Below, one piece after another: positions 1 through 31,638 of a DNA stretch of 33,386 bases; the stretch's first letter is position 1, and the number at the start of each line of letters is the position of its first letter. A program made the position numbers and the translations under genes. Source of the stretch: Planctomycetota bacterium. Its GTDB lineage: Bacteria > Planctomycetota > MHYJ01 > JACPRB01. A model generated the notes under the pieces. It did not search any database, was not told the DNA's origin, and saw nothing but the letters and a program-made list of their open reading frames with translations. Where the stretch lies: positions 1 through 33,386 of the forward strand of contig JAHFOZ010000003.1 of the NCBI GenBank assembly GCA_023261405.1, in the 5' to 3' direction.

Positions 1-3000
1 ATCATTGCCTACAACGGGATCGGAAGCGTCGTCGCCTCGAACGCCCCCTTCAGCTTCACCACGACCACCTCCGACGCCACCCCGCCCCTGGCGGGCGCCG
101 TCAACGACGGCAGTGGGGCGGACATCGACTACCAGGCTTCCCTCGCCACGATCCAGGCCAACTGGAACGGCTTCAGCGACCCGGATTCCGGCATCACGGC
201 CTACGAATGGGCCATCGGGACCACGCCCGGCGGAACCCAGATGCAGGCCTTCACGGGCGTGGGGCTCTCCACGTCCGCCACGAACTCCTCCTTGAGCCTC
301 TCCGGCGGACAGACCTACTACGTCTCCGTCCGCGCCACCAACGGAGGAAGCCTCACCGTCACCGCCTCGAGCGACGGCGTGCAGGTCGACGTCGCCGCGC
401 CGACGGGCACCAGCGTGGTCATCAACGGCGGCGCGGCCGCGACCAACGCCACCGTCGTCACCCTGGCCCTGACCGCGACCGACGCGGCCTCGGGGGTGGC
501 CCAGATGCGTTTCTCGAACGACGGCCTTTCCTTCTCGCCGTACGAGCCCTTCGCCCCCTCGAAGGCCTGGATTCTCGTGGCGGGTGACGGTCCGAAAACC
601 GTGTACGTCCAGTTCGTGGACGCCGTGGGCAACACCGCCCCCGTCGTCACCGACGGCATCACGCTCGACACCGCGCCGCCCAACGCCCCCACGCCCCTGG
701 CCCCCGCCGACTCAGCCTCCTTCGTCGGTGGCTCGGTGAATTTCTCCTGGACCAACGAATCGGGCAGCGGGGCCGTGGCCTACCGCCTCCAGGTCGACAA
801 CAGCGCCGGCTTCTCCTCGCCGGAAGTCGACGCCCCCGGGCTTGCCGTGACGAGCTTCACCCCGGGCTCGGCGCTCGCGGTGGGCAGCTACTCGTGGCGC
901 GTCATCGCCTCGGATGCGGCGGGAAACACGGCCGCCAGCGCCGTCTTCACCTTCACCGTCCAGACGACGCCCCCGGCGACCCCCACGGGCCTCCTGGCTT
1001 CGGTCAGCGGCGCGGATGTGACGTTCAACGGCACCGTGACGGACCCCGACCTCGACCCGGTGCGGCTCGACGTCGAGATCCAGCCCGTCGGGACGCCGTT
1101 CACCGGGACGCCCACCGCATTCAGCGCCTTCATCGCCAGCGGCGGCGTGGCGAGCCGGACCGTCCTCGGGCTGGCGAACGGGAGCTACGACTGGCGGGCG
1201 CGGGCCGTGGACCTCCAGGGCTTCGCCTCGGCGTGGTTCGACATCCCCGGGTCTCCCGACTTCGCCGTCAGCGTGGCGCCCAACAATCCCCCCGCGGCGC
1301 CGGCGGCGGCCGGCCTCGAGCAGCTGACGAACGCGCTCGTCCCCATTCCCGTCGGCAACGTCACCAACGAGACCCTGGTGAAGTGCCGGGCCACCGTCAG
1401 CGACCCGGACGGCGACGCGACCCGCCTGGAGATCGAGTTCCTTCCCACGTCCGCGGCCTTCACCGGGGTGCCCACCCACTCCAGCGCCCTCGCCCCGAAC
1501 GGCGCGGCCGTCGTCATCACCGCCTCGGGCCTGGCGAACGGGACCTGGCACTGGCGCGCCCGGTTCGTGGACGCCTCGGGTGCGGCCTCCGCGTGGACGA
1601 GCTTCGGGGGCAACGCCGACGGCGCCCCCGATGTCCAGGTGAGCGTCCCGGTGACTTCGCCCCTCTCGCCGGCCAGCCTGGCCGTCTCGGTCGCCGGGAC
1701 GAGTTCCTCGGTCACGCTGCAGGCCTTGCTCGTCGACCCGGGGGACACGATCCAGCTCCAGGTGGAAGTGGAGCCGAACCCCGGGACGTTCGGCGACGTT
1801 CCGGACGCCGGCAGCCCTTTCGTCGCGAGCGGCGGCACCGGCACGGTGCTGCTGGCCGGGCTGGCCGCGGGCAACTACATCTGGCAGGCGCGGGCGGCGG
1901 ACTCGGCGGGGAACATCAGCGCCTGGGTGGCCGGCCCCGGCTTCAGCGTCGCCCCCAACACGCCCCCCTCGGCGCCGTCGTCCCCCGGCGCGTTCAAGGC
2001 CGGCGGCGCCACCGCCGTCCCCCTCACCAACGAGACCCTCGTCGTCTTCCAGGCGGGCGTGAGCGACCCCGACAGCGACCCGGTCCAGCTGGAGGTGCAG
2101 GTCCAGCCCGGCGGGCTGTCCTTCGCCGGGGCCTTCGCCGCGAGCGGCGGCACGGCCTCCGTGGCCGCCACGCTCCCGCCGGGCTCCCACACCTGGCAGG
2201 TCTTTGCGCGCGACATCCGGGGGGCCGCCTCCGCGCTCGCGGCGGGCCCGCCCTTCACGATCAGCACCTCCGCCCCCGTGGTCTCCGCGGTCAGCGCCGT
2301 CCCGGCGACCGGCACGGCGCCGTTCAACGTGGACTTCTCCGCGTCGATCTCCGCGGCGAACGCCGTGGCGGGGATCGGCTGGGACTTCGACGGCGACGGG
2401 TCGATCGACTTCAACGGCGCGGGCTCCGCCACCGCCACGCGCGTCTACTCGGAGCCCGGGGTCTACCCGGCGAAGATCTACGTCACCGACATCGCGGGGA
2501 ACACGACGGTGGCGGGCGTCACGATCACGGCCAACGCGCCCCCGTCGCCGCTGTCCACGGTCGCCGCGGACAAGTCCGCCGGGCCCGCTCCGCTCGCGGT
2601 CAACTTCTCGGCGACGCTCGCCGGCGCGAGCAGGGTGGTGGCGCTGAGCTGGGACTTCGATGGCGACGGGAACCCCGATGCGGTGACCGCCGGACCGAAC
2701 GCGACCCACACCTACTTTGCGCCCGGCACCTACCCGGCCCGCCTCCGCGTCGTGTACGACGACGCCACCTACGAGACCGTCCCCCTGGCGCCGGCGATCG
2801 TGGTGACGAACCCGCCCGGCGGCCTTTCCACGGTCCGCATCGTGCGTGCCTTCGCCGACTCCGACAACGACCTCCAGCGGGGCGCGACCGAGGCCATCCT
2901 CGGAAGCAACCTCGTCTCGGGCCTGGGCGGCTCCACCGTGACCGTTCAGGCCGGGCAGCGCCTGGGAATGGAAGGCTCCACCACGCTGGCCGCCGGCCTG

Positions 3001-5574
3001 GAGGTGCACGCCTGGGAATGGGACTTCACGGGGTCGGGCGAGATCGACCGGGGATCCGCTACAAGCAGCACCGGCACGCACGTCTACGAATCGGCGGGGA
3101 ACTACGTGGCGACCCTCCACCTGACCGACCGGGTGGCCGCGACCGGGCTGCCCCGCGCACGCGCCAGCACTTCCGTGAACGTGAGGGTCCTCCCCCCGAC
3201 GGCGGAGAACCCCCGCGTGTTCTTCACCCAGCCGGCGTATCGCGGGCGGACGATCGGCGGCAACTGCTTCACGTTCGAGGTGACCGCCGTGCCCGCCACG
3301 GTCATCGATTACCCGACCGTCCGGGTGCAGTTCTCCCTGTTCTCCTCCGGCCCGTGGACCGACCTCCCGGTCTCGTCGGTCGCCCTCGGCCGGCCCGCCG
3401 TCCGCCTGACGGTGAACCTGGCGTCCCTCATCCCCGGGACCCTGACCGGCGGGACCCCCTACTACTGGCGTTGCCGCGCGACCACCCTGGGCGGCGTGCC
3501 TGTCACGATCGATTCCGACGCCCCGGACCAGCAGGGACCGTTCCCCCTCGTGCCGCTCGCCGCCGGCGCGCAGATCCAGAGCGACTGCACCGGCCCCCTG
3601 GTCACCACCCTCGAGCTGGACCCCACGGCCCGGAACGAGGCCGCCGCCCCGGGCCAGACCCGGGTGGTCATCCCCTTCGAGGGACTTCCGCCCCCTCCCA
3701 CGCCGGCCGACGCGCTGCAGATCCTCCTGAGGAACCTGGATTCCAACCCCGCCGGCACGTCCGCCTCCGTGGCCGACGGCATCAATTGCACGATGGCGTT
3801 CGTGAGCGGGTTCCGCGAGGTGAAGGTGACGGACGGCAGCGGCAACGCCTTCTCGCTGCTGAAGCCGGCCCGCGTGCGGATCTACTACAACGACGCCGAC
3901 GACGACGGCTTCCTGGACGGGACCTCCCAGAACGAGCTCGACCTGAGGATCTTCCGGTTCGTGAACGGCCGCTGGGCGGAGCTCGAGGACGTGATCCGCC
4001 ACCCGGGCGAGAACTGGATCGAGGGGACGACGACCGGATTCAGTTTCTTCTCGGCGGGCGCGGAGAACGTGTCGGGAGGAGGGACGCCGCTGATCGCGCG
4101 GGGGGACCACTGCTCCTCGGGGGCGGCGGCCGCCGGAACGAACCCGATACTCCCGGCGGCGCTGGGGGCGCTCCTCCTCGCCGGCGCCTGGGTCGCCCGC
4201 CGCCGCCGGGGCCCCAAGATCCTCGCGTGTCTCCTGGTCCTGTCGGGGGCTTCCGGCACCGTCTTCGCCCAGGAGCCGAACAAGCAGGAGGCGATCGAGC
4301 AGGAGAAGCGGAAGGCGTTGGGAGCGGGGGACCGCGGCGAGGCCGTCGGCGACGATCTCCTCTGCGAATACGGGGCATGGTCCAGGTCCGCCTACTACGG
4401 CTATCGCCGGGGGGACGGGAGAAAGGTCGGGTGGTTCGACGAGGACATCCGGGTCTGGCTGGACCTGGGATACCTGGAGGCGCACCGGCTCTATCTCCGC
4501 GCCCGCGAGGAGGTGCTCCTCTACTCGGGGGGCGACGACCCCGAGGGAGGGCACGACACCCAGGGGGGGCGGCCCCACATGGACCTCGCCTTCTATGAAG
4601 TGGGAAACGCCACGCTCCGGGCGCGCGCGGGCCGCCAGTACATCGGGCTGGGGATCGGCTTCGTCTACAACCAGGTCGGGGATGGGCTGAGCGCGGAGGC
4701 CCGCCTGGATCCCTTCCGCCTGTCGGCCTTCGGGGCGCGTTCGGTACACTCCCAGGACGACATCGACCGCAGCCGCCCCAACTTCGACGATTCCAGGCGC
4801 TTCTTCGCGGGCGGACAGCTGGACATCGACGTGCTCGGCGACCACAAACCCTACGTCATCGCCATGGTCCAGCGGGATCACAACGGGGACGAGAGGGCCA
4901 CGCAGGAGTTCACCTTCGACTCGGAGTACCTGGGGGCCGGGATCGCCGGGCAGGTGGGGACGTACATCACCTACGCGGCGGAGGGGGTCCTCGAGACGGG
5001 ATCCCGGTTCGCCACGGGCCAGGTGGACGATCCCGAGAAGATCCGGGCCATGGCGTTCCTGGCGCGCGGGAGCCTCTTCCTGAAGGAGGACAGTTCCCTG
5101 GTGCTCCGGGGCGAGTACATCTTCGGGAGCGGCGACGGCGACCGCTCCTCCGCCGTGAATACCGTGAACGGCAACACGGCCGGCACGGACGACGAATCGT
5201 TTCTCGGCTTCGGGTACCTCTTCACCGGCCTCGCCCTCTCCCCGCGGCCGATCAACCTGCACATCCTCCACGGCGGATTCGCGGCCACGCTCCACACGGA
5301 CGAGGCGGGGACGACGGCGGTGGACGCCGGGATCGACGCCTTCATCTTCCGCAAGCATCGCAAGGACGGCGGGATCGACGACCCCTTCGCGGCCCCCTTC
5401 AGCGGGTTCATCAGCCGGGACATCGGGGAGGAGATCGACCTCTACCTCAACTGGAAGGCGCTCTCCGACCTAGGGTTCACGCTCCGCTATGGCGCCTTCA
5501 TTCCCGGGCTCGCGTACAAGAGCTCGGATCCCTACCGGTATTACTTCGGGGTCGGGATGGTATACTCGTTCTGA
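1..5574 (+). CDS. Giant secreted cell-surface (adhesin-like) protein, 5'-partial: FN3/Ig-like repeats, three PKD domains, internal MYXO-CTERM-like segment, fused C-terminal alginate-export-like OM beta-barrel
   Basis: Frame 1 is open from nt 1. There is no stop before the listed ATG at 241, and nt 1-240 translate to IIAYNGIGSVV...YEWAIGTTPGGTQ, which continues the same repeat style. Stop is TGA 5572-5574. PKD signatures WDFDGDG (~2377 and ~2647) and WDFTGSGE (~3013) are each followed by Y..G.Y...L.V.D. The last ~434 aa have alternating-hydrophobic strand patterns, an LRARAGRQYIGLGIGF motif and a terminal ...GVGMVYSF aromatic residue, typical of OM barrels (resembles Pfam Alginate_exp from memory). 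Confidence 0.9.
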   Translation: MIAYNGIGSVVASNAPFSFTTTTSDATPPLAGAVNDGSGADIDYQASLATIQANWNGFSDPDSGITAYEWAIGTTPGGTQMQAFTGVGLSTSATNSSLSLSGGQTYYVSVRATNGGSLTVTASSDGVQVDVAAPTGTSVVINGGAAATNATVVTLALTATDAASGVAQMRFSNDGLSFSPYEPFAPSKAWILVAGDGPKTVYVQFVDAVGNTAPVVTDGITLDTAPPNAPTPLAPADSASFVGGSVNFSWTNESGSGAVAYRLQVDNSAGFSSPEVDAPGLAVTSFTPGSALAVGSYSWRVIASDAAGNTAASAVFTFTVQTTPPATPTGLLASVSGADVTFNGTVTDPDLDPVRLDVEIQPVGTPFTGTPTAFSAFIASGGVASRTVLGLANGSYDWRARAVDLQGFASAWFDIPGSPDFAVSVAPNNPPAAPAAAGLEQLTNALVPIPVGNVTNETLVKCRATVSDPDGDATRLEIEFLPTSAAFTGVPTHSSALAPNGAAVVITASGLANGTWHWRARFVDASGAASAWTSFGGNADGAPDVQVSVPVTSPLSPASLAVSVAGTSSSVTLQALLVDPGDTIQLQVEVEPNPGTFGDVPDAGSPFVASGGTGTVLLAGLAAGNYIWQARAADSAGNISAWVAGPGFSVAPNTPPSAPSSPGAFKAGGATAVPLTNETLVVFQAGVSDPDSDPVQLEVQVQPGGLSFAGAFAASGGTASVAATLPPGSHTWQVFARDIRGAASALAAGPPFTISTSAPVVSAVSAVPATGTAPFNVDFSASISAANAVAGIGWDFDGDGSIDFNGAGSATATRVYSEPGVYPAKIYVTDIAGNTTVAGVTITANAPPSPLSTVAADKSAGPAPLAVNFSATLAGASRVVALSWDFDGDGNPDAVTAGPNATHTYFAPGTYPARLRVVYDDATYETVPLAPAIVVTNPPGGLSTVRIVRAFADSDNDLQRGATEAILGSNLVSGLGGSTVTVQAGQRLGMEGSTTLAAGLEVHAWEWDFTGSGEIDRGSATSSTGTHVYESAGNYVATLHLTDRVAATGLPRARASTSVNVRVLPPTAENPRVFFTQPAYRGRTIGGNCFTFEVTAVPATVIDYPTVRVQFSLFSSGPWTDLPVSSVALGRPAVRLTVNLASLIPGTLTGGTPYYWRCRATTLGGVPVTIDSDAPDQQGPFPLVPLAAGAQIQSDCTGPLVTTLELDPTARNEAAAPGQTRVVIPFEGLPPPPTPADALQILLRNLDSNPAGTSASVADGINCTMAFVSGFREVKVTDGSGNAFSLLKPARVRIYYNDADDDGFLDGTSQNELDLRIFRFVNGRWAELEDVIRHPGENWIEGTTTGFSFFSAGAENVSGGGTPLIARGDHCSSGAAAAGTNPILPAALGALLLAGAWVARRRRGPKILACLLVLSGASGTVFAQEPNKQEAIEQEKRKALGAGDRGEAVGDDLLCEYGAWSRSAYYGYRRGDGRKVGWFDEDIRVWLDLGYLEAHRLYLRAREEVLLYSGGDDPEGGHDTQGGRPHMDLAFYEVGNATLRARAGRQYIGLGIGFVYNQVGDGLSAEARLDPFRLSAFGARSVHSQDDIDRSRPNFDDSRRFFAGGQLDIDVLGDHKPYVIAMVQRDHNGDERATQEFTFDSEYLGAGIAGQVGTYITYAAEGVLETGSRFATGQVDDPEKIRAMAFLARGSLFLKEDSSLVLRGEYIFGSGDGDRSSAVNTVNGNTAGTDDESFLGFGYLFTGLALSPRPINLHILHGGFAATLHTDEAGTTAVDAGIDAFIFRKHRKDGGIDDPFAAPFSGFISRDIGEEIDLYLNWKALSDLGFTLRYGAFIPGLAYKSSDPYRYYFGVGMVYSF
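961..2268 (+). repeat. Four tandem, diverged ~105-aa Ig-like modules inside the giant surface protein
   Basis: The protein-level pattern is repeated four times: (V/T)SDPD.D...LEVE..P.G..F.G.P...S.....G......GLA.G.Y.W.ARA.D..G..SAW......F.V.PN.PP.AP. Unit boundaries are approximately 961-1285, 1286-1650, 1651-1962 and 1963-2268. Confidence 0.7.
4102..4269 (+). other. Internal C-terminal-sorting-signal-like segment (GDHCSSG..hydrophobic helix..RRRR) directly followed by a signal-peptide-like segment (KILACLLVLSGASGTVFA/QE)
   Basis: Translation is GDHCSSGAAAAGTNPILPAALGALLLAGAWVARRRRG PKILACLLVLSGASGTVFAQEP. The first half has the Cys-Ser-Gly, TM-helix and Arg-cluster layout of MYXO-CTERM/PEP-CTERM-type anchors. 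The second half looks like an n-h-c signal peptide with an AxA-like cleavage site. No ATG/GTG/TTG and no stop occur in frame between them. Confidence 0.55.
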
Positions 5575-5587
5575 ACCGGAGGATCGC

Positions 5588-6070
5588 ATGCACCGCCTGC
5601 TTCCCGCGGCGCTCCTGATGCTGGGGGCGGCCTTCCCGGGCGAGGCCGACCCGCCGTCCCTGGAAGGGGACACGAGGTTTTACCGGGAGCTCCTCCAGAA
5701 GGCACGCTGCACGAACGAGGACGGCGCGCGCATCGTGCTGATCTTCGCGGAGAAGGCCGACTGGGCGAAACCCGACGAGCGCATGACCCGGGCGACCAAC
5801 ATGGGGTTCCTCGAGGAGAAGTGGGAGACCAAGGCGGAGGAGACGCTCCCCGCCGACCTGTTCGCGTACATGCTGTGCCAGGCCCTGAAGCTGAAGGGCG
5901 GGGTGACGGCGAGGCTCCTGGGGATGAGTCCCCGCACGGCCTATCGCGAGTGCGTCAGCCTCCGGCTCATGCGCGCCGGCGGTCAGGGCCGCGGCCTCGC
6001 CGGCCGCGAGGTGCTCAGCATCATGGCCCGCGCGGACGAGTACCGGAAGAAGCGGGAGGAGAAGAAATGA
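5588..6070 (+). CDS. Small secreted hypothetical protein (signal peptide; weak SLH-like helices)
   Basis: ATG at 5588 is preceded by GGAGG (5577-5581), 13 nt after the stop of the upstream gene. N-terminus MHRLLPAALLMLGAAFPGEA is signal-peptide-like. The stop TGA 6068-6070 overlaps the next start (ATGA). The ORF-track start at 5489 lies inside the upstream CDS and is rejected. Confidence 0.7.
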   Translation: MHRLLPAALLMLGAAFPGEADPPSLEGDTRFYRELLQKARCTNEDGARIVLIFAEKADWAKPDERMTRATNMGFLEEKWETKAEETLPADLFAYMLCQALKLKGGVTARLLGMSPRTAYRECVSLRLMRAGGQGRGLAGREVLSIMARADEYRKKREEKK

Positions 6071-6891
6071 CCTGCCTCGGGATCGCGCTCTGCCTCGCCC
6101 AGGCTGCCCCGGCGGCGCAGGAGCCGGCGCCGCCGAAGAAGGCCGCCCCGGCCGCCGTGGTCGAGAAGCTCAAAGGGGACGCGGACGTGAAGGCGCCCTC
6201 CGCGAAGGACTGGCAGCCCGCGAAGGAGGGGATGGGACTCGAGGAGGGGGCGCAGGTCTCCACGGGCTTCGACACCGAGATGGTCCTCAGGTTCGAAGGG
6301 GATCACCGGGTGACCCTGAAGGCGCTCACCCAGATCGAGGTGACGAAGCTGCTCCGGAGCGAGAAGGCGGTGGAGACGTCGATCCGCCTCGACATCGGAT
6401 CGATGAAAGGGAAGGTCGAGAAGGAGAGCGTTCCGGTCCGCTTCGAGGTGACCAGCCCGGTGGTCACCGCCTCGGTCAAGGGGACGGAGTGGACGTTCGG
6501 TTACAGCTCCGATTTCGGGTTCAGCGCCCGGGTCGTCGAGGGGCTCCTGGCGCTCGAGGGGGCCGGGGCGCCGAAGGTGGACGTCCCCGCGGGAGGCGCG
6601 GCGGCCACGCCCCCCGCGAACGCCCTGCAGCCGGGCGGCCCGCTGCCGCGCGGCCTGGCGCGGGGCTTCGAGATGCGCGAGAACGGCCGCGCCGTGGCGC
6701 TCTTCGATCGGGCCAGCCAGGCGGACTTCCGGGCGTCGGCGGTAGGAATGCCGCCCCAGTACGCCGAGTTCTCCCTGAACGACGCCGGGGTGTCGACCTC
6801 GGTGATGAGCCTCCGCTCGATCGTGAACGGGACCGGCTCCTTCCTGGTGCCCGCGGGCGGCGCCGTCTTCGCCCTCTGCCCCTGCCGCTGA
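6067..6891 (+). CDS. FecR-domain periplasmic protein
   Basis: ATG 6067 overlaps the upstream stop (ATGA) and is preceded by GGGAGGAG. FecR-like pattern: KGDADVK...WQPAKEGMGLEEGAQVSTGFDTEMVLRFEGDHRVTLKALTQI ... VTSPVVTASVKGTEWTF. It has a short hydrophobic N-terminus. Confidence 0.8.
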   Translation: MTCLGIALCLAQAAPAAQEPAPPKKAAPAAVVEKLKGDADVKAPSAKDWQPAKEGMGLEEGAQVSTGFDTEMVLRFEGDHRVTLKALTQIEVTKLLRSEKAVETSIRLDIGSMKGKVEKESVPVRFEVTSPVVTASVKGTEWTFGYSSDFGFSARVVEGLLALEGAGAPKVDVPAGGAAATPPANALQPGGPLPRGLARGFEMRENGRAVALFDRASQADFRASAVGMPPQYAEFSLNDAGVSTSVMSLRSIVNGTGSFLVPAGGAVFALCPCR

Positions 6892-6929
6892 GTGCCTCCA
6901 TCGACTCCCCGGATGCCAGTCCTCGTCGG

Positions 6930-9503
6930 ATGGGGCGGCCCCTCGCGGCGATCGCCTTGGGGGCGGGGGTCGCCGTCCTCGTCTCGCTCTCGACCCTGGG
7001 CCTCCCCCTCCACGAGCGCCTCGAGCTGCTGACCCTCGACCTCCGCTTCCGCTGGCGCTCCCCGCCGCCCGCCTCCCCGAAGATCGTCCACGTGGACCTG
7101 GACGACCGGTCGATCGCCGAGCTGGGCCGCTGGCCCTGGGACCGGCACGTGCACGCGCGGTTCCTCGACATGGCGGAGATCCTGGGCGCCAAACGGGTCG
7201 TCTTCGACGTGGAGTTCTCCGAGCCGCAGCGGGCCTTCGTCCCGGCCGCGGGCGCGGAGCGGGCCGCCGCCGTGGCGGCGGAGCACGCCCGCCGGCACGG
7301 CGAATCGCTCGCGGGTCTCGCGAAGGATCTTTCGGACTCGAGGACGACCCCGGCCCAGGCCGCGGAGCTGCTCAAGGTCGTCGCCGGCGGCGAGGAGAAG
7401 CTGACGGACCAGGTGAGGTCCGTCCTGGCGGAGGAGACGCTCGATTACGACCGGGTGTTCGTCGAGGCCATCCGCCGCCGCAAGGGGACGCTGGTCGGGT
7501 ACACGGCGAAGCGGGAGGGGAAGCCGGAGAAGGGCGGCGACCTCCTCGCGGGGCGCGCCTCGTTCGGGGCGGCGGGTCCGGGGACCTCCCCCGCCCTCGA
7601 GCTCGTGGCTCCCATCCTCTCGATCCAGGAGGCCGCGTCCGGCTTCGGGGTGACCACCATCGAGCCCGACCGCGACGGCGTGACCCGTCGCGTCGCCCTC
7701 CTCTGGAACTACGGGGGGAAACTACTTCCGCAGCTGGGGTTCCGGGCCGCGCTCGACGAGCTGGGCGTCGAGCCCGGGAAGATCTCCGTCGAGCCCGGAC
7801 GGATCCGCGCCGGCGGGCGGGAGATCCCGGTGGACGCCGAGGGCCGCGCGATCCTGGACTGGCGCGCGGGACCCCCGGGGGAGCTGTGGGCGGGGATGTT
7901 TCCCCACGTCTCCTACGTCGAGGTCTACCGGTACTGGGAGGACCTGGACGCCCTGGACCGGCTCTTCGCCGGCCTCGAGGCGAAATGGCCCCGGAAGGTG
8001 CTCTTCGGACGCCGGAACGGGCTGCGCAAGGGGTTGGACGCCTCGGCCGAGTCGCTGAAGAACCTGCGCGACGAGGAGGCCGAGCTGGTCCGGCTCCTCC
8101 GGACGCAGATCGCCGACCGCGAGCGGAGCGGCCCCTCGGAGGAGGAGCGCCGCTGGCTGGGGGAGGCCCGCGAGCTCCTCGAGAAGGCGTCGAAGCGCCG
8201 CGAGCTGGCGATCCAGAGGGAGGAGATGCTGCGGAAGGAATTCCGGGAGAGGACGACGTGGTTCGTGGGGGCCTCGTACGTCGCCGCGACGGACTTCCAG
8301 TCGTGCCCCCTGGACCCGCGCGAGAAGATCCCCGGGGTGACCATCCACAGCACCGTGTTCAACATGATGGAGCAGGGGCGTTTCATTTCCCCGCTCTCCG
8401 TCCCGCTCACGGCGGCCCTCGCGCTCCTTCTGGGGGGGCTGGCGGTGGCGGCGGCGATGCGGCTGAACGCGCTCCTCGGGGCCCTCGCCGTGGCGCTGGG
8501 CGTGGCGGCCTGGGCCGCGGCGTGTCACGTCCTGTTCACGAAGGGCACGTGGCTGGGGATGGTGGGGCCCTCGGCTTCGGCGGCGCTCTCCTTCGCGGCG
8601 GTGACGGTCTTCCGGTCCTTCTACGAGGAGAAGGACAAGCGCAAGATCCGGAGGCTCTTCGAGCACTACGTGGACCCCACGCTGGTGGAGCGCCTCGTGG
8701 CCGACCCGAGCCTGGCGGGCATGGGCGGCGCGGCGCGCGAGGGCACGGTCCTCTTCGCGGACGTCGCCAACTTCACCCGCTACAGCTTCCTGGCGAAGCC
8801 GGAGGAGGCGGTGGCCTTCGTCAACGGGTACCTCTCCATGGGCACGGACGTGATCCTCGCCCAGGGCGGGTACCTCGACAAGTACATGGGCGACGGCCTG
8901 ATGGCGGTCTTCGGCGCGCCGCTGGGAGCTCCGGGGCACGCGGTCCGGGCCTGCCTCTCGGCCCTCGAGATGCAGACCCGCGCCCCCGATTGCGTGGGGG
9001 ACTTCGAGCAGAAGGTGGGCCTGCCCTTCAAGATCCGGGTCGGGCTGGCCTCGGGCCATTTCATCGTGGGGAACGTGGGCTCGCGCGACCGGGTCAGCTA
9101 CACCGCGATCGGGGACACGGTCAACCTGGCCTCGCGCCTCCAGACCGCGGGCAAGGAGCTCAACCTCCGCATGCTCTGCAACGAGGAGACGGCGCTCGTG
9201 GCCGGGGGCAAGATCGAGACGCGGGACCTGGGGCTTTTCAAGGTGAGGGGCCGCGAGGCCGGCGTGCGGGTCCACGAGATCCTGGCGCCCGAGGGCGGCG
9301 TCTCCCAGGCCCTCCGGGAGTTCCGGAAGTGGTTCGACGACGGCCTGCGGGCCCACTTTGAGCACGACTGGACGCGCGCCTTCGACGCCTTCAGCCACGC
9401 GGCCGCGCTCATGCCCGAGGACAAGGCCACGCTGCTCTACCTGAAGCTCGCCGGGGAGTTCCGGAAGCAGCCCCCGGATAAGCTCGATCCGATCCCTCTT
9501 TGA
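6930..9503 (+). CDS. CHASE2 sensor domain / class III adenylate (or guanylate) cyclase
   Basis: ATG 6930 is the first start codon after the FecR stop. The N-terminal TM helix is followed by the CHASE2 signature (LDLRFRWR...IVHVDLDDRSIAELGRWPWDRHVHARFLDMAEILGAKRVVFDVEFSEP). Three TM helices (~8390-8620) come next, then a cyclase homology domain (GTVLFADVANFT...YLDKYMGDGLMAVFGAP...IRVGLASGHFIVGNVGS..RVSYTAIGDTVNLASRLQ). The Lys in DKYMGDG suggests ATP specificity. Confidence 0.93.
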   Translation: MGRPLAAIALGAGVAVLVSLSTLGLPLHERLELLTLDLRFRWRSPPPASPKIVHVDLDDRSIAELGRWPWDRHVHARFLDMAEILGAKRVVFDVEFSEPQRAFVPAAGAERAAAVAAEHARRHGESLAGLAKDLSDSRTTPAQAAELLKVVAGGEEKLTDQVRSVLAEETLDYDRVFVEAIRRRKGTLVGYTAKREGKPEKGGDLLAGRASFGAAGPGTSPALELVAPILSIQEAASGFGVTTIEPDRDGVTRRVALLWNYGGKLLPQLGFRAALDELGVEPGKISVEPGRIRAGGREIPVDAEGRAILDWRAGPPGELWAGMFPHVSYVEVYRYWEDLDALDRLFAGLEAKWPRKVLFGRRNGLRKGLDASAESLKNLRDEEAELVRLLRTQIADRERSGPSEEERRWLGEARELLEKASKRRELAIQREEMLRKEFRERTTWFVGASYVAATDFQSCPLDPREKIPGVTIHSTVFNMMEQGRFISPLSVPLTAALALLLGGLAVAAAMRLNALLGALAVALGVAAWAAACHVLFTKGTWLGMVGPSASAALSFAAVTVFRSFYEEKDKRKIRRLFEHYVDPTLVERLVADPSLAGMGGAAREGTVLFADVANFTRYSFLAKPEEAVAFVNGYLSMGTDVILAQGGYLDKYMGDGLMAVFGAPLGAPGHAVRACLSALEMQTRAPDCVGDFEQKVGLPFKIRVGLASGHFIVGNVGSRDRVSYTAIGDTVNLASRLQTAGKELNLRMLCNEETALVAGGKIETRDLGLFKVRGREAGVRVHEILAPEGGVSQALREFRKWFDDGLRAHFEHDWTRAFDAFSHAAALMPEDKATLLYLKLAGEFRKQPPDKLDPIPL

Positions 9504-9524: not shown

Positions 9525-11000
9525 CTACCCGAACAGCTCCGTCACCGGCTGCGCCTGCACGAGCTCGCGCGGCTGCTTGAGGTGGTTGAGCACGATCGTG
9601 TCCGGTGCGATGCCGAAGGCGTGGTAGATCGTGGCCAGCAGCTGGATCGGGTGCACCGGCTTCTCGAGCGGCGCCGAGGCCGTCTTGTCGGACTTGCCGT
9701 AGACGGCTCCGCGGCGGATGCCGGCGCCCGCGATGAGCGAGGTGTAGCAGTAGGGCCAGTGGTCGCGGCCGTCGGCGGAGTTGCCGTTCCCCGAGGTCGA
9801 GACGCCGCGCTGCGGGCTGCGGCCGAACTCGCCGATCGCCAGGACCAGCGTCTCCTCGAGCAGCCCGCGGCGGTCGAGGTCGATGAGCAGCCCCGAGAGG
9901 CCCGCATCGAGCATCGGGCCGGCCTGGTTCTTCATGCGCTTGGGCAGGTCCACGTGCATGTCCCACGAGTGGTTGTCGGAGTTGGCCACCTTGGGCCAGA
10001 CCACCTCGACCACGCGGGTGCCAGCCTCGATGAGCCGCCGCGCGAGCAGGCAGCTCTGGCCGAACGTGGTCCGGCCGTAGAGGTCGCGGATCTCGGCGGG
10101 CTCGCGGTCGATCTCGAAGGCCTCGCGCGCGCGGCCGGAGGCCACGAGGTTGAGGGCCCGATCGTAGTACTCGTCCAGCTTGTAGTCGGACACCGCCTTC
10201 TCGATCTCGGGCATGGTGGCGTTGATCTCCTCGCGCAGCCTCGCGCGGCGCTGGAGACGGAAGGCGAAGACCTCGGGGCGCAGCTTGAGGTCGTCCACCT
10301 TGAGGCTGTCCAGCTTCGACATGTTCATGTCGTCGCCGTCGGGGAAGAGCGTGTAGGGGTCGTACCCCTTGCCGAGGAACCCGGCGGTCCCGCCCTTGCC
10401 CACGACGTTCGACTCCTGGAGCGGGCGCGGGAGCATGACGAAGGGGAGCATCGGCATGTCGGGCGGCCTGAGGCGGACGATGTTCGAGCCGTAGTTCGGG
10501 AAGTCCTTCGGATCCGGCGGCTCGAGCTGGCCGGAGGGGCTCACCTTGTCGGTGGTGTAGCCCGTCATCATCTGGTAGATGGCCGCGGTGTGGTTGAAGA
10601 GGCCGTTCGGGGTGTAGCTCACCGAGCGGATCATCGTGCACTTGTCGTTCACCTGGGCGAGCTTGGGGAGGACCTCGGTGAACTGGCAGCCGTCCACCTT
10701 CGTGGGGATGGGCTTGAAGACGCTCTTCACGTTGTCGGGCACGTTCTCCTTGGGGTCCCAGAGGTCGAGGTGGCTGGGGCCGCCCTGGAGATAGCACATG
10801 ATGACGTGCTTGGCCTTGCCCCATCCGGGGCCGCCGCCCTTCTTCTCTTCCTGCGCCCTGGCCTGGAGCTGGAACATCGAGCCCAGGGAGAGGCCCAGGA
10901 CCCCCGAGCCGCCCGCCCGGAGCATGTCGCGCCGCGTCATGCCGTAGCCGGCGCCGCAACAGGGATCGCTCTCGTGGCCGCGCGAAGGGACGACGATCAT
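9525..11000 (-). CDS. DUF1501 domain protein (sulfatase/alkaline-phosphatase-like fold), Tat signal
   Basis: ATG at 11000 is preceded by AGGAG, 20 nt after the stop of the upstream PSD1 gene. It has a twin-arginine motif ([12 protein letters not shown]). DUF1501 hallmarks: [15 protein letters not shown] ... GEFGRSP ... GRDHWP. Confidence 0.93.
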
Positions 11001-11020
11001 GGTCGGTCTCCTAAAGCTCT

Positions 11021-14000
11021 CTACCTATTGAACAGGAAAGCCGGGCTGTTGATCAAGGCCCATGCGAGATCCTGGGCCATCGTGAGCCGGGTATTCAGAG
11101 CCTGCTTTGCGCTCGCCTCCGCGTCCAGGCGGATCTGGACCAGCCGGGCGTCGATCGGCACCGGCCGGGTCACCCGCTCCACCGCGGCCTTGTGTTCCGT
11201 GAGCTTCGGGTCGACGGGCAGGGGAGCCTTGGCCGCGGCCACCGCGTCGGCGCGCTTCCGGTACTCGGGGTCAACCGCGCGCTGGTAGCGGAGGAGGGCG
11301 GTCTTCTGCTTGTCGCTGCGCTGCGCGGCGGGCGTGGCGACCGCGGCGCGGTACTCGTCGGCGAGCGTGAGGCCCACGGGCCTCGGCATCGTGGACACCG
11401 AGAGCCGGAACCGGCCGAGCGCGTACTCCGGCGAGCTGAAGTTGAAGTGGAAGACGAAGGTGAGGATCGTGCCGCCCTTCGCCCCCAGCGGCTCCTTGGG
11501 CTCGAACGTCGCCCAGTGCGTCGTCCCTGTCGCGGGCGAGACGGCCCAGCCCTTGCTCCCCGAAGTGGCGTTCCCGTCCACGGCCGAGGCGACCTCGAAG
11601 TTCACCTGGCTGAAGCTGGCGAGCGCCTTCTCCAGGGTCACCTTCGCGGCCTCCTGCGGCTTGGCCTTGGACGCCGCGCGGAGCTCGAGCTCGGTGAGGA
11701 CGAAGTTTCCGTCGGCGGCCCGGCCCGGGCCACGCGCGGGGAACTTCTCGTCGCCGATCGCCTCCAGGCGCACGGCCGTGATCCCCTCGAGCTGCGTCTC
11801 CGCGGTGAACGTGTACGTGCCCTTGGCGTTCTTGTCGAGCGCCGTCACCGAGAGGTCCGGCTCCACCGCCAGCTTCGCGCCGGTCGTGGCCGCGAGCGTG
11901 ACGGGCGCCAGCGGCACCCAGTCGGCGGAGACCGACTGCTTCTTCTCCCATTCGGTCACGCGGGTGCCGAGGGCCTCGTCGAAGGCTTTGAGGTCGGCCT
12001 CGGCCTTGGCGATCTTCTCCTGCTGGGCCTTCTTCTCGGCCTCCACCTGGGGTGCGATCTCCTTCTCGTAGGCGGCGAGCTCGGCCTGGGTCCGGGCCAT
12101 CGACTCCTCGCGCCGTTTCTCGAGGACGGGCTTCTCGCCGGTCCACCATGCCTCGCGGTCCTTCAGGATCTCGGCGAGCTTCGCGTTGTCCTCGGCGACG
12201 CCCGGGAGCATCTTGAGGGCGGCCTTCAGCTCCTGGGGCTTGGCGGGGCGGTTCAGGATGCGCATGAACATCTCGTCCACGAGCTTCGCGTCGTCCTTCT
12301 CGGTCTCCGCGAGCTTCGTGATCGCGTTGCCCGGATCGCCGATCGCGTCGGCGAGGGTGGGCCCGCTCACGAGGGCCATGACGGCGCCGAGGCGCAGGTC
12401 GCTGTTGCGCTCGCACTCGCAGGCGCTCTCGCGGACGGGCCGGCCGAAGGTGGCGAGGAAGCCGCCGGGGAGGTCGACTCCGGAATCGGGGATGGCCGCC
12501 GCGCGCGTGCCGGCCGCCACGCCGGGGATCTTCGAGGTGGAGCCCGTGACGCGCTGCACGGCGTCGTAGAGCACCTCTGCCGGGAGCCGCCGCGCGGCGG
12601 CATGGGAGCAGTTCACCTTGTCGTCCGCGTTCCACGGGTTGACCGCCACGGAGAGCTGGTAGGTCCGCGAGGTGCAGATGAGGCGGAGCATATGCCGCGG
12701 GTTGAAGCCGCTCTTCAGGAACTCGGCGGTGAGGTGCTCGAGGAGCTGCGGGTTCGAGGCCGGGTTGCCCGCGCGGATGTCGTCGATGGGCTCGATGATC
12801 CCGGTGCCGAAGAGGTAGCCCCAGAGGCGGTTGACGTAGCTCCTGGCGAAGTACGCGTTGTCGGCGGAGGAGATCCAGGCGGCCAGCTCCTGGCGGCGCG
12901 TGGCGTCCTTGGGGGCCTCGTACTTGCAGTCGAAGGGGAACTTGGGGGGCGCGGGCTGGTTGGTGCGCAGGTGGTTGATCTCGCCGTCCTTCTTGTCGGC
13001 GACGATCTCGTACATGGGCTTGGCGCCCTCGACGGCGGTGCCGCCGATCGTGCCGGCCGCGGCGGGGTCCTTCTGGAGGTCCACCCGGGCGAAGAAGGCG
13101 GAGGTCTCGTAGTACTGGTTCTGGGTCCACCGCTCGAACGGGTGGTCGTGGCACTTGGTGCAGTTGAAGCGGATGCCGAGGAAGAGGTGGGTGGTGTTCT
13201 CGGCGATGGACGCCGGGTCGCGGAGGATCTTGTAGTACGCGGCCGGCGGGTTCTCGCGGTTGGAGCCCGAGGCCGTGATGACCTTGCGGGCGAACTCGTC
13301 GTAGGGGGTGTTCTTCTCCACTTCCGTGCGGATCCATTTCCGGAAGGCCGCGGCGCCCTCGGTGCCCAGGAACTTCCGGTTCACCTGGAGGAGGTCGGCC
13401 CACTTGTTGGTCCAGTGTTCGATGAAGCCCTCGGAGCCGATGAGCTTGTCCACGACCTCGTCGCGCTTCACGCGGGTCTCGCGGGCGTCGGCGAGGAAGG
13501 CGCGGGTCTCGTCCGCCGTGGGGGGGAGGCCCGTGAGGTCGAGATGCACGCGCCGGAGGAACTCGGCGTCGGTGGCGAGGTCGGAGGGGCGGATCTTCAT
13601 CCGCTCCCACTTCGCGGCGGTGAGCTCGTCGATGCGGTTCCAGGCGGGCGGGGCCTCCCAGGCGAAGCCGGTCCGGTCGCCCATCACCGTGATGGGGGTG
13701 GCGGAGTAGGCACCTTCGAATCGGGCGAGCACGGCGGCCTCGCCGCGGCGCACGGCGGTCACGACGCCCATGCGGTCGGTGGTGGCGATCTCCGTGTTCG
13801 AGCTTTCGATGTAGGCGTCCCGGGTGACGTCGCGGATGCGGCCGTCGGCATAGGCGGCGAACACCCGGAGCTGCTGGCGGCCGGCGATGCGCTGGAGGAC
13901 GGGGCTCGAAGGCGCGATCTCGATCTTCGTCACGCGGGGGGCGGCGGGGTCCAGGCGCGCGCCCTGGGCGATCCAGGTCTTCACGATCTCGTAGTAGGCC

Positions 14001-16105
14001 TCGCCGGGGACGAGGACCTGGCCGCCCTCGTGGGGCACCTCGGCCGTGGTCTTGAGGAGCATCACGCTGTCCTGGGGCGAGGCCACGTTGACGCGCCGGG
14101 AGGAAAGCTCGTCCGTGAGGGCCCGGATGTCGGCCACGCTGTCATAGCCGCGGAGGGAGAGCTTGAAGCCGTTCTTCCCCTGGGCGGAGCCGTGGCAGGT
14201 GCCGGCGTTGCAGCCCACGCGGCTGAGCACGGGATTGACGTCGCGGATGAAGTCCGAGCGGAACTCCTCCTTGAGCCCGGAGACGGTCACGGGGACGGAG
14301 ACCGACTTGCCGGCGAAGGAGAGCTCGAGCGCGGCCTGCCCGTCCGATTTCGGCTGGACGAGGCCGGTCTTCGAGACGGCCGCCACGGCGGCGGAGAGCT
14401 TCGGGGCGACCATGCGGGTCATGTCCACCGCCTCGCCGGTCTCGAGGCGGCCCGTCACCACGAGCTGGACGTAGTCGAAGCGGTTCGAGAGGGCGATCTT
14501 GTCCGGCGCGACCTCGAGCGACGCGAGCTTGCCGCCCGCGGGGAGGACTTCCTCCTTCACCTCGGGCGAGGGGCGGTGCACGGGGGCGGTGCCGGTGGCG
14601 GCGGCGCGGGCGTCCACGGGCGCGGCGGGGAATTCCTTCGAGAGCTTGCCGGTCTCGGTCTCGTAGAGCCGGATGATCCCGTCGGAGCCTGCGGCAGCGA
14701 AGGCGGCGCCGTCGGGGCGGAAGGCGGCGGCGTAGACGATGCCGGTCTCGACCTTGACCTGGGCGACGACCTTGACGCCCTCGGTCTTGTAGTCGTCGAT
14801 CAGCTTCCGCTCGGCGGGGCTGCGGCTGTCGGCGACCTTGCCCATGGCGCCCTTGACCTTCTCGGGGAGGGCGGTGTCGAACTCGTAGGAGTAGACGGCG
14901 ATCTCGCTCCGTCCGTCGAGCCCGCCGGCGGCGAGGAGGCGCTTGCCGTCGGCGCTCACGGCCACGGCGTTGACGCGCCCGGGAATGGCGGGGAACTCGC
15001 GGATGATGTTCGAGTCGTCGCCGATGACGCGGCCGACGATGCGGTGCATGCGGTAGACCCGGGGGTGGCCGTCGTCGCCGCCGATGACGATCTCGTCGCG
15101 CTTGGGATGGCGGGCCACGGCGCCGATGCCGCCCTTGAGGGCGCCTGGGGTGATCGAGGAGATGTTGTCCACGAAGCGCTGGGTGGCGACCTCGATGAGC
15201 TTGACGGTGCGGTCGCGGCTGACCGAGGCGAGGTGGGAGCCGTCGACGGAGAAAACGGTGCCGAGCGCCCAGTCGTTGTGGGCGCCCTGGAAAAGGACCT
15301 GCTCGCCGGTCTTGGCGTCGATGGCGCGCACGGTGTTGTCGCCGCAGCCGAAACCGATCTTCGACCCGTCCGGCGACCAGCTGGCGCCGTAGACGGTCTC
15401 GTAGGTCACGGGGACGGAGAGGGTGAGCGTCTTCTTCTCGAGGTCCCAGACCTGGATCTCGCCGGAGCGGCCGGGGAGGCCGCCGGAGACGGCGAGCCGC
15501 TTGCCGTCGGGCGAGAAGCGGACGGACTGGATGCGCTCTGAGAGGCCGACCAGGCGGGCGACGCGCTCGGAGCCGTCGGCCTTGTAGAGGAGGGCCTCGT
15601 GGAAGCCGGCCACGGCGAGGAGCTGGCCGTCGGGCGAGAAGTCGAGCGAGGTGACGACGGGGGCGCGCGAGTAGACGGGGGGATGCTCCATGTCGAACTT
15701 GGCGCGGGCGCCGGCGGGGGTGTCGTCCAAGGCGCCCTCGGAGATCCACTTCGTGATGAGGGCGACGTCCTCCTTGTCGAGGGGCTTCTTCCCCTTGGGC
15801 ATCTCGATCTCGCCCTTGTCGTTGGTCGTGATCTGGGCGAGCAGGCTGCTCTTCCCGGGCTGGCCGGGGACGACGGCCTTGCCGAGGGTCTCGCCGCCCG
15901 CGAGGAGCTTGTCGAAGCTCGTCATGATGAAGCCGCCCTTGGCCTTGGCGGGCTGATGGCAGCCGAAGCACTGGGCTTGAAGGATGGGCCGGATCTTCTT
16001 ATCGTAGCTCACCTTGCCCGGGTCGGGCTTCTTCGCCTCCTGCGTCGCGGCGAGAAGCGCGAGCGCGGCGGTTGCGCCCAAGGCAAGCCGGAAGGATCGC
16101 ATCAT
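11021..16105 (-). CDS. PSCyt1 (CxxCH) - WD40 beta-propeller - Ig-like - DUF1549/PSCyt2 - DUF1553/PSD1 giant periplasmic protein with C-terminal coiled coil and beta-sandwich module
   Basis: The longest ORF starts at GTG 16114. ATG 16105/16102 with upstream GGGGTGGG gives the signal peptide [20 protein letters not shown]. Motifs: [14 protein letters not shown] (PSCyt1), repeated WD40-like SPDG..LA..G blocks, [37 protein letters not shown] + [12 protein letters not shown] (DUF1549), and [14 protein letters not shown] (DUF1553). Confidence 0.92.
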
Positions 16106-16153
16106 GGTGCCCACCCCGAAAAGAGTGAAGATACCGGCTGTTTACCTGCCGGG

Positions 16154-16355: not shown

Positions 16356-16515
16356 ACGGGGCACCCTCTTCCTGTAATATAGGTAAGTAGGCTCCGGGGC
16401 GGGGTATCCTCCGGCCGGCCTGGGTACTGAGCCGCAGAAGTTCGGGGCCAGTTGTGCCTCCTGCGGCCAACGGGTCACGAACTTGCGAGTCGAAGTACTG
16501 CGAAAGGAACTTCAC

Positions 16516-19500
16516 GTGCTGCGTCTGGCGTCCATCACCCTCGGCGCGCTCCTCCTGGCCCTCGGGCCTGCATCCGGACAAGCCGGGCCGAAAGACGCCG
16601 GCAAGGTCGACTTCACCCGCGACATCCGCCCCATCCTCGCCAACAACTGCCTCCTCTGCCACGGGCCCGACGCGAAAGCGCGCAAGGCCGACCTGCGCCT
16701 CGACTCGCGGGACTCCGCCATGGCCGACCTGGGGGAGGGCGTCCGGGCCATCGTCCCGGGCCAGCCCGCCAAGAGCGCCCTCTACCAGCGCATCACCGCC
16801 GCCGATCCAGAGGACGTGATGCCCCCGGCCAAGACGGGGAAGAAGCTCACGAAGGTCCAGGTGGACCTCCTCAAGCGCTGGATCGAGGAGGGCGCCCCCT
16901 ACGCGAAGCACTGGTCGTTCGCCAGGCCCGAGCGTCCCGCGCCGCCTGCCGTGAAAGACGCGAAGTGGGCCCGCAACGACGTCGACCGCTTCATCCTCGC
17001 CCGCCTCGAGAGGGAGGGGCTCAAGCCCTCCCCCGAGGCCGACCGCCACGCCCTCGCGCGGCGCCTCTCGCTCGACCTCACCGGGCTGCCCCCTGCGATC
17101 GAGGACGTGGACCGTTTCGTGAACGACAAGGCCCCCGACGCCTACGAGACCTGCGTCGACCGCCTCCTCGCCTCGCCCGCCTACGGCGAGCGATGGGGCC
17201 GCGTCTGGCTCGACCTCGCCCGCTACGCCGATTCGCAGGGCTACACCGAGGACCGCCCCCGCGTCATCTGGGCCTTCCGCGACTGGGTGATCCGCGCGCT
17301 CAACGAGAACATGCCCTTCGACCGCTTCACGATCGAGCAGCTCGCCGGCGACCTCCTCCCGAACGCAACGGACTCCCAGGTCCAGGCCACCGGCTTCCAC
17401 CGCAACACGCTCACCCAGACCGAGGGCGGCACCGACGACGAGGAGTTCCGCAACTTCGCGATCATCGACCGCGTGAACACCACGATGGCGGTCTGGATGG
17501 GCGTCTCGTTCAACTGCGCGCAGTGCCACGACCACAAGTTCGACCCGTTCTCGCAGGAGGAGTTCTTCCGTCTCTTCGCCTTCTTCAACCAGACCGAGGA
17601 CAACGACCAGCCCGACGACAAGCCCCTCCTGATGATGTTCAGCGAGGAGCAGAAAAAGCAGAAGCAGGGCTGGCTGGACGAGATCGCCCGGCTGGAAACC
17701 GTCCTCGCCCAGCCCTCTCCCGAGCTCGAGGCGGGCCGGAAGAAGTGGGAGGAGGGTTTCCGGAAGCCCGTGGCGTGGACCGCGCTCAGGCCCGCCGAGC
17801 TCAAGAGCGCCTCCGGAGCCGCGCTCGCGCTCCAGGGGGACGCCTCCATCCTTGCGAGCGGAGGCACGCCGGCGAAGGACACCTACACGCTGCACGTCAC
17901 GACGGACGCGAAATCGATCGCCGCGCTCAGGCTCGAGGCCCTGCCCGACCCTTCGCTCCCCGCCTCCGGGCCGGGCCGCGGCGCCAAGGGCGACTTCCTC
18001 CTGTCGCGGGTCGCGGTCTCCCTCGTCCCGAAGGACGGCAAGTCGCTCGAGGCCCGCTTCGTGCGCGTGGAGCTCCCGGGCCAGCCGTACCTCTCGCTCG
18101 CCGAGGTCCAGGTCCTGAGCGGCGGCGCGAACGTCGCGCTCAAGGGGAAGGCGAGCCAGTCGAGCACCGGCTTCGAGGGCGTCGCCTCCCGGGCCATCGA
18201 CGGCGTGACCAACGGCGACTACCACGCGGCCAACTCCGTGACCCACACCGCCGGCGGCGAGGACAACCCGTGGTGGGAGGTCGATCTCGGGAAGCCCGTG
18301 CCGATCGAGAGGATCGTGATCTGGAACCGCACCGACGGCGGCACCTCCGAGCGACTCAAGGGCTTCAGGGTGAAGCTGCTCGACAAGGACCGCAAGGGGG
18401 TGGACGAGCGGAAGTTCGACAAGGCGCCCAACCCCAAGGTGGAGTGGCCGGTCGACGGCACGCGCGCCATCGCGCTCCGTTCGGCGCACGGGGAGGGCGG
18501 GGCGGCCGCGCTGGTGGCCAACGCCGACCCGAAGACCCAGGGCTGGTCGGGCGCGGCGGGGAAACCGCACGAGGCCGTGATCATCCTCGAGAAGCCCCTC
18601 GCCCTCGAGGCGGGGACGGTCCTGGGGCTGACGCTGGAGCACGCCTCGGGCGCCGCGCTGGGGAGGTTCCGGGTCTCGGCGACCGCGGACCCCGCGGCCC
18701 AGGCCGACCTGCCCGCGGACGTGCAGGCGATCCTGGGGAAGGCCGAGAGGTCGAAGGACGAAGCGGCGAAGGTCGAGACGTACTACCGGTCGATCGCCCC
18801 CGAGCGCGCGACGGAGCGCGCCCGCCTCGCCCAGGTCCGCAAGGACCTCGAGGGCCAGAAGGCGGCGATGACGGTCCCGGTGCTGCGCGAGCTGCCCGCG
18901 GCGCGCCGCCGGAAGACGCAGATCCAGGTGCGCGGCAACTTCCTCGTCAAGGAGAAGGAGGTCTCCGAGGGCGTGCCCGCGGTCTTCCACCCGATGCCCG
19001 AGGGCGAGCCGAAGAGCCGCCTCGCGCTGGCGAAGTGGCTCGTCCACCCGGACAACCCGCTCACGGCGCGCGTCGTGGTGAACCGGCACTGGGAGCAGCT
19101 CTTCGGGACCGGACTCGTCTCCACGAGCGAGGACTTCGGCGTGCGCGGCGAGCCGCCGTCGCACCCCGAGCTGCTCGACTGGTTGGCGACGGAGCTCGTC
19201 CGCGAGAAGTGGGACCTGAAGAAGCTCCTCAAGCTCCTGGTCACGTCCGCGACCTACCGGCAGGGCTCGAATCTTACGCCCGAGCTCGTCGGGAAGGACC
19301 CGGCGAACCGGCTCCTGGCGCGCGGCCCGCGGTTCCGCCTCTCGGCCGAGGCCGTGCGCGACCAGGCGCTCGCCGCGGGCGGGCTCCTGAGCCGCAAGAT
19401 GTTCGGGCCCTCGGTCTACCCGCCGCAGCCGAGGATCGGCCTGAGCGCGGCATTCTCCGGGTCGCTCGACTGGCAGACGAGCACGGGCGAGGACAAGTAC

Positions 19501-19956: not shown

Positions 19957-19960
19957 GCGG

Positions 19961-21406
<1,446 letters not shown>

Positions 21407-30095: not shown

Positions 30096-30135
30096 CAGTA
30101 TACTGGACGGAAGGACCGCCCCGTGCCCGTGCGAC

Positions 30136-31500: not shown

Positions 31501-31578
31501 GCCATGAGAAGAGACACCGCCGCCGGGTCCCTGCGTGCGGCCGGCGCCCGATCGTACCCCGCCTTCCCCGCGTACCCG

Positions 31579-31607
31579 TTCACATCCGGGGGGGTAATTG
31601 GTATAAA
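31579..31607 (+). promoter_or_regulatory. Candidate sigma70-like promoter (TTCACA - 17 nt - TATAAA) for the third PSCyt gene
   Basis: TTCACA at 31579-31584 and TATAAA at 31602-31607 have exactly 17-nt spacing, within the only AT-rich patch of the divergent intergenic region. GGAG at 31625-31628 lies before ATG 31639. Confidence 0.35.
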
Positions 31608-31638
31608 GTACCAGACCTCCTTTCGGAGTCCTCGGGCG

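Follow-up and report, generated by a model that had tools for sequence, protein, structure and literature searches.

The 33,386-nucleotide stretch analysed in this work (hereafter the window; contig JAHFOZ010000003.1 of the Planctomycetota assembly GCA_023261405.1) carries an open reading frame (ORF) in which a giant repeat-rich surface protein, the adhesin, runs through a Cys-type sorting tag directly into the signal peptide of an AlgE-like outer-membrane β-barrel. This ORF has probably arisen by a secondary fusion, specific to this lineage, of two genes that are normally separate; its product would be tolerated as a self-resolving polyprotein and is not an autotransporter-like device. It is unusual for a sorting tag to be joined head to tail with a signal peptide, and no other example was found, while each of the two parts is itself of a known kind.

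Reading frame of the fused gene

On the + strand, frame 1 runs uninterrupted from window base 1 until its stop codon at 5572-5574, with no stop upstream of the ATG at 241 from which the ORF tool lists the gene (241-5574), and the visible fused ORF comprises 1857 residues. Because the frame is already open at base 1, the 5′ end of the adhesin gene and the N-terminus of its product lie outside the window, which corrects the start at 241 adopted in an earlier description made from the letters and ORF translations only (the sequence-only reading). An exact-protein database look-up of the listed ORF 241-5574 returned no record. The stretch ...GDHCSSGAAAAGTNPILPAALGALLLAGAWVARRRRGPKILACLLVLSGASGTVFAQEP... 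is present in the ORF as the sequence-only reading had quoted it, and hydrophobicity analysis (Kyte-Doolittle value above 1.6 over 15 amino acids) finds only two hydrophobic segments in all the visible residues, namely the transmembrane (TM) helix of the tag and the barrel signal peptide.

The same reading had noted that neither a stop nor an ATG, GTG or TTG codon separates the two parts and that the alternative frames offer no nearby stop. Both statements hold, as the only in-frame ATG/GTG/TTG codon within 4000-4300 is the GTG at 4069 and the first stops past the junction are located at 4688 in frame 2 and at 4596 in frame 3. The codons at the joint are GCC CGC CGC CGC CGG GGC. The third-position GC content of frame 1 stays at 0.87-1.00 right across the junction, so there is no hidden non-coding spacer and both halves are coding in one frame.

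The barrel half and its signal peptide

The barrel half matches the PF13372 Alginate_exp family with 33.1 bits against a gathering score of 25.2, in agreement with the alginate-export-type barrel first proposed for it. The AlphaFold2 model, built with a 79-sequence alignment, has about 18-19 strands, a mean predicted local distance difference test score (pLDDT) of 86.6 and a predicted template modelling score (pTM) of 0.82, with the sorting-tag region being disordered. In a Foldseek search against PDB the 17 best matches are all AlgE (E-values down to 6e-18, target TM-scores of 0.66-0.74), the top one being AlgE 3rbh (E 6e-18, TM-score 0.73). A PDB sequence search with the barrel gave no match, the likeness to AlgE having come from the fold search. 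Judging by the model, the barrel is intact and has an AlgE-like fold.

Five barrel homologues were obtained in a word-indexed search, all of them stand-alone proteins of 462-512 amino acids annotated as PF13372, and an exhaustive search retrieved 407 among 1.84 billion representatives. The best 150 of these 407 are 184-660 amino acids long and none of the 150 possesses a giant N-terminal extension. For 68 out of 78 homologues in the 79-sequence alignment, the initiator Met falls on the residue located just before the RRRR of the window (one homologue, P0011, has the N-terminus MRRGP...), and the N-terminal signal peptides of the homologues align with RRRRGPKILACLLVLSGASGTVFA. The family signal peptides commonly begin with M followed by R or K, and most of them end ...A/Q, where the slash marks the cleavage site. 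Since the homologue starts and signal peptides align there, the segment following the tag, which had already been described as signal-peptide-like, corresponds to a complete ordinary barrel signal peptide lacking only the Met.

The adhesin half and its sorting tag

The adhesin half is composed of Ig-like, PKD, Big_13 and OmpL47-type domains, and its repeat region has many generic homologues. The domains are followed by about 330 residues of orphan sequence: a homologue search with the last approximately 334 residues plus the junction gave no match, so that there is no orthologue from which the end of the adhesin in other genomes could be read.

The 52 residues around the Cys motif (window 4060-4215) match the TIGR03901 MYXO-CTERM hidden Markov model with 20.7 bits (cutoff 20, E 4e-4), and the score for the PEP-CTERM model is under its cutoff. 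The tripartite layout is present in the order GDHCSSG, PILPAALGALLLAGAWVA, RRRR, as had been noticed from the letters. Tags of this build are normally terminal (10.1101/2023.06.07.544157), but here 457 in-frame residues follow the Arg cluster. Several proteins sharing repeat domains with the adhesin, among them P0261, P0231 and P0201, have Cys-TM-Arg tags at their true C-termini (in these three ending 3-11 residues past the Arg cluster), which places the tag in the window among those of the normally terminal kind. P0261, which originates from a Myxococcota metagenome-assembled genome (MAG), ends ...CGCSSGSGSFEVGVWLAAAMLLLRRRAASQPVLR and its tag includes ...CGCSSGSGSF.... No other CTERM-tagged ORFs were found within the 33-kb window.

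Between window positions of approximately 1000 and 2400 (residues of about 250-730 when numbered from the start at 241) the adhesin contains four or five copies of a module of about 110 amino acids. Its motif, read by eye in the translation, is ...(S/T)DPD(G/S/L)D...(L/V)E(I/V)..., ending with G(N/S)Y.W.AR..D..G..S.W, and no Pfam match was reported over these modules.

Relatives of the barrel gene and the conserved cassette

In the related loci L001, L002, L004 and L005 the barrel is encoded by a stand-alone gene of about 460 codons with its own ATG. L001, which is the same locus as L003, belongs to a groundwater Planctomycetota MAG, and L004 to an uncultured member of the Planctomycetales. 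The barrel heads a cassette in the order barrel, small protein (142-146 amino acids in the relatives), FecR-domain protein and CHASE2-cyclase, located at 4270-9503 in the window, 6401-11566 in L001, 2396-7503 in L002, 1942-7205 in L004 and 789-6176 in L005. Domain content was confirmed for L001 and L002; for L004 and L005 the match is one of ORF order and size only. The barrels of the relatives sharing the cassette are down to 34% identical, and the window possesses the three downstream genes in the same order.

The upstream neighbours of the barrel vary and are unrelated (L001 has an integrase fragment there, L002 a CNNM-family gene and L004 an ORF of about 390 amino acids), and no adhesin was found upstream of the barrel in any of the relatives' loci examined. 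As the relatives carry a separate barrel gene heading the cassette, the barrel is not a dedicated partner of the adhesin, contrary to what had been suggested, and its fusion to the adhesin is a derived condition that none of the other retrieved sequences shows. A scan of a genome collection with a three-sequence alignment found two distant loci only; of two metagenome scans, the first gave no match and the second only relatives at 33-34% identity.

Three relatives possess a promoter-like box (TTGCCG/TTGGCG-N17-18-TATAAT-like) ending 7-10 nucleotides before the barrel ATG, at 6360-6403 in L001, 2353-2398 in L002 and 1900-1944 in L004, which suggests that their barrel transcripts are leaderless or near-leaderless. 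Promoter scans revealed no such box near the window junction.

The small protein encoded at 5588-6070, for which no Pfam match was found, is homologous to the N-terminal approximately 130 residues of P0077 (35% identity over 139 amino acids, E 1e-17), where the small-protein domain is fused ahead of a barrel of the same family; P0100 appears alike by eye only. This Rosetta-stone fusion suggests that the small protein and the barrel work together. No polysaccharide synthesis genes are present among the ORFs scanned over the window, and the cassette looks like an envelope-spanning signalling module, not a polysaccharide exporter.

Table 1 Coordinates of the fused ORF and of the cassette genes following it in the window
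Feature	Position	Strand	Evidence
Adhesin passenger (giant surface protein, open 5′ end)	1-4101	+	Open frame; Pfam PKD_4, PKD, Big_13; NCBIfam barrel_OmpL47
Cys-type sorting tag signature GDHCSSG (Cys 4111-4113)	4102-4122	+	TIGR03901, 20.7 bits
Tag TM helix PILPAALGALLLAGAWVA, predicted stop-transfer segment	4144-4197	+	One of the two hydrophobic segments
RRRRGPK, tag Arg cluster and basic n-region of the barrel signal peptide; inferred fusion point	4198-4218	+	Sequence; alignment of homologue Met
Barrel signal peptide h- and c-regions ILACLLVLSGASGTVFA, predicted signal peptidase I site VFA/QEP	4219-4269	+	Homologue alignment; hydrophobicity
Mature AlgE-like outer-membrane β-barrel ending ...MVYSF (4270-5571), with stop codon (5572-5574)	4270-5574	+	PF13372; AlphaFold2; Foldseek
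Small secreted partner protein, 160 amino acids, own signal peptide; cassette gene 2	5588-6070	+	ORF and translation; like-sized gene in like position in L001 and L002
FecR-domain protein, ATG overlapping the preceding stop; cassette gene 3	6067-6891	+	PF04773, 32 bits; like position in L001 and L002
CHASE2 sensor fused to adenylate/guanylate cyclase; cassette gene 4	6930-9503	+	PF05226, 125 bits; PF00211, 67 bits; like position in L001 and L002

Support for the junction in public metagenome runs

A public groundwater metagenome, run X1, holds 98-99% of the sampled sequence words of the region, and all 13 sampled words of 4140-4300 are present in this run only. X2 and X3, two other runs of the study behind X1, contain the region only thinly and are too shallow to cover the junction. 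The independent Logan assembly of X1 contains a 4530-nucleotide contig with a depth of 6.0, which matches 3400-4539 with 0 mismatches and 0 gaps, reaches from about 4.2 kb before the junction to 330 nucleotides past it and shows no branching there. The word length of the Logan assembler is 31 bases. Because the CGC run at the joint is only about 12 nucleotides long, and a chimera needs a shared repeat of about the length of the assembler word, which would normally break the contigs, an assembly chimera is unlikely, and the two halves appear to be joined in frame in real DNA.

The X1 Logan contigs break at 4517-4539 inside the barrel gene (depth of 6.0 before and 5.6 after the break), with the next contig picking up at 4517; continuity over this interval holds, since contigs from X2 and X3 cross the break without mismatch. 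The 4530-nucleotide contig begins near window base 10, so that both assemblies break at the same spot in the repetitive adhesin gene. Matches of X2 and X4 at 4155-4208 were dropped as unrelated TM-helix-coding fragments (33 nucleotides, 3 mismatches, unlike flanks).

Origin and processing of the fusion

The two explanations offered by the sequence-only reading were an evolutionary fusion of an anchored adhesin with its dedicated barrel and a lost stop and start, of which the latter is the better fit. Gene 1 would have been a giant surface protein once ending in a Cys-type (MYXO-CTERM-like) tag, and gene 2 an AlgE-like barrel heading its own cassette. The stop codon, the short intergenic promoter region and the barrel ATG may have been lost in a deletion that joined the run of CGC/CGG Arg codons closing the tag to the Arg-rich n-region with which the barrel signal peptide opens, and the frame would have been kept after in-register recombination because both runs read as CGC/CGG Arg codons.

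Both sorting signals would survive such a deletion and form a membrane hairpin in which a loop bearing five positive charges connects two helices; under the positive-inside rule, hairpin insertion is expected for such a charge layout. The tag helix would halt the transfer of the adhesin, RRRRGPK would remain cytoplasmic and the former signal peptide would restart export of the barrel, which signal peptidase I could cut between VFA and QEP, giving a mature barrel as in the relatives for insertion by the β-barrel assembly machinery (BAM). The adhesin, left with its tag and the second helix, would still be cleavable at the Cys tag by a myxosortase-like protease. A strictly terminal position is not required of the tag, since MrtX cleaves TraA even with a FLAG epitope placed behind the Arg cluster (PMC11980579). 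The fusion may be near-neutral in function, its main effect being that the cassette loses its own promoter and start and comes under the transcription and translation of the adhesin gene.

A stronger version of this scheme, a working envelope polyprotein with an inner-membrane hairpin that is resolved by signal peptidase I and a Cys-tag sortase and couples the adhesin 1:1 with the barrel/FecR/CHASE2-cyclase cassette, is possible but doubtful. The joint in the window looks unrefined, since the P0077 fusion has no hydrophobic segment between its parts, unlike the window. A literature search on bacterial polyproteins with internal signal peptides found nothing relevant.

Several points weigh against the tolerated fusion of two formerly separate genes. 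The junction is held by one sample only, at approximately 6x depth and seen as assembled contigs; the MYXO-CTERM score exceeds the cutoff by a small margin and is marginal; no cognate CPBP-type sortase is encoded among the window genes, and the N-terminal signal peptide of the adhesin would lie outside the window. The deletion mechanism, the hairpin topology and the signal peptidase I cleavage are all inferred. The same is true of the ancestral two-gene state in this lineage, because no close relative (above 50% identity) of either half was found in the homologue, genome-collection and metagenome searches.

Alternative explanations

The junction could also be real but inactivating, resulting from a recent deletion in one population, either deleterious or neutral, with the product being mis-sorted or degraded and the locus becoming a pseudogene. 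The absence from the window of the promoter-like box and ATG of the three relatives, the uniqueness of the fusion among the best 150 of the 407 homologues and its occurrence in one low-depth sample are all consistent with that, and intact domains are what would be expected after a very recent event. Nevertheless, the two halves are fully intact, as are the three genes downstream of them, third-position GC is high and there is no sign of decay, and the two-signal layout obeys the positive-inside rule and would permit normal processing, so we regard inactivation as unlikely. It is distinctly improbable that the junction is artefactual, whether through chimeric assembly or through a consensus error in a MAG whose organism really has two genes. 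The sequence does come from a metagenome of groundwater, the junction has the support of run X1 only (about 6x), the joint falls in a low-complexity CGC run and the contig begins inside a repetitive gene; against this, a second X1 assembly spans the junction without mismatch or branch, the CGC run of about 12 nucleotides is too short relative to the assembler word for a chimera, the depth is equal on either side (6.0 and 5.6), and no small indel could do away with stop, promoter and start together and yet leave the coding signal unbroken.

The remaining two explanations concern the way in which the barrel is made and used. It might be translated separately from an internal non-canonical start, such as ATC 4219, CTG 4234 or CTG 4240, on a transcript starting inside the adhesin gene. 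These codons lie in frame, and the relatives appear to use leaderless or near-leaderless starts, but there is neither an ATG/GTG/TTG codon nor a promoter-like box near the junction, initiation at ATC 4219 would strip the signal peptide of its basic n-region, and leaderless initiation, to our knowledge, requires a 5′-terminal AUG or GUG, all of which makes separate translation very unlikely. An adaptive autotransporter-like system, in which the barrel serves as an export pore or anchor for the adhesin of the same chain, had been suggested by the sequence-only reading on the basis of the passenger-then-barrel order in one ORF, a superficial likeness to type V secretion. It is hardly credible, given that the passenger is followed, ahead of the barrel, by a stop-transfer helix, an Arg loop on the cytoplasmic side and a cleavable signal peptide, that the barrel fold is that of AlgE and Pfam finds no autotransporter or POTRA domain, that the barrel belongs to a conserved signalling-type cassette with no adhesin upstream in the relatives' loci examined, and that no giant passenger occurs in the best 150 of the 407 homologues.

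Other genes of the window

Three large PSCyt1/PSCyt2 proteins are encoded at 9525-16114 (-), 16483-21406 (+) and 29767-33385 (+), the third of which leaves the window at its 3′ end. Two of them also carry PSD1, each adjoining a DUF1501 gene, and among the three a WD40 propeller occurs in one and an F5/8 type C domain in one. Genes of this kind are characteristic of Planctomycetota, in keeping with a groundwater planctomycete MAG as the source.

Significance

If the fusion is made and processed as predicted, it would be an example from nature of two envelope proteins being produced as one chain and split by ordinary housekeeping proteases. C-terminal sorting tags and signal peptides would then be joinable head to tail without harm, which bears on the rise and tolerance of secreted-protein fusions. 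As a caution for annotation, a sorting tag lying mid-ORF ahead of a signal peptide marks a pair of fused genes. The weight of the case is modest, as only one such event is seen, in one metagenomic genome of low coverage, and there is no sign of selection; the barrel/small protein/FecR/CHASE2-cyclase cassette may be the more general biological lead.

Comparison with known systems

With MYXO-CTERM proteins, such as TraA of Myxococcus xanthus which is processed by the CPBP-family protease MrtX, the window shares the tripartite tag following a large repeat-rich surface protein. It differs in that the tag is internal, with 457 residues after it, the host is a planctomycete and not a member of the Myxococcota, the score is marginal and no sortase gene is present in the window. 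The barrel shares with the 18-stranded AlgE/Alginate_exp (PF13372) barrels the Pfam match, the fold, the signal peptide and the C-terminal ...YSF, but is only about 16% identical to AlgE and has no start codon of its own. Nor is there an alginate biosynthesis context, since the barrels of the window and of its relatives sit with a small protein, FecR and a CHASE2-cyclase.

The barrels of type V autotransporters are 12- or 16-stranded and are joined directly to the passenger without intervening topogenic signals. The ORF described here shares with them the order of a large passenger and then an outer-membrane barrel at the C-terminus, whereas its barrel has another fold, a linker helix is not apparent, Pfam detects none of the autotransporter, POTRA or ShlB-type domains, and the stop-transfer helix and the second signal peptide would have the passenger and the barrel cut apart at the inner membrane. 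The P0077 and P0100 fusions show that the barrel family accepts N-terminal fusions, as in the window. However, the partner in P0077 is the cassette's own small protein, and P0077, as read from its sequence, carries a single signal peptide, at its N-terminus, with its parts not separated by any hydrophobic segment, whereas the sorting tag and the signal peptide are both kept in full at the joint in the window.

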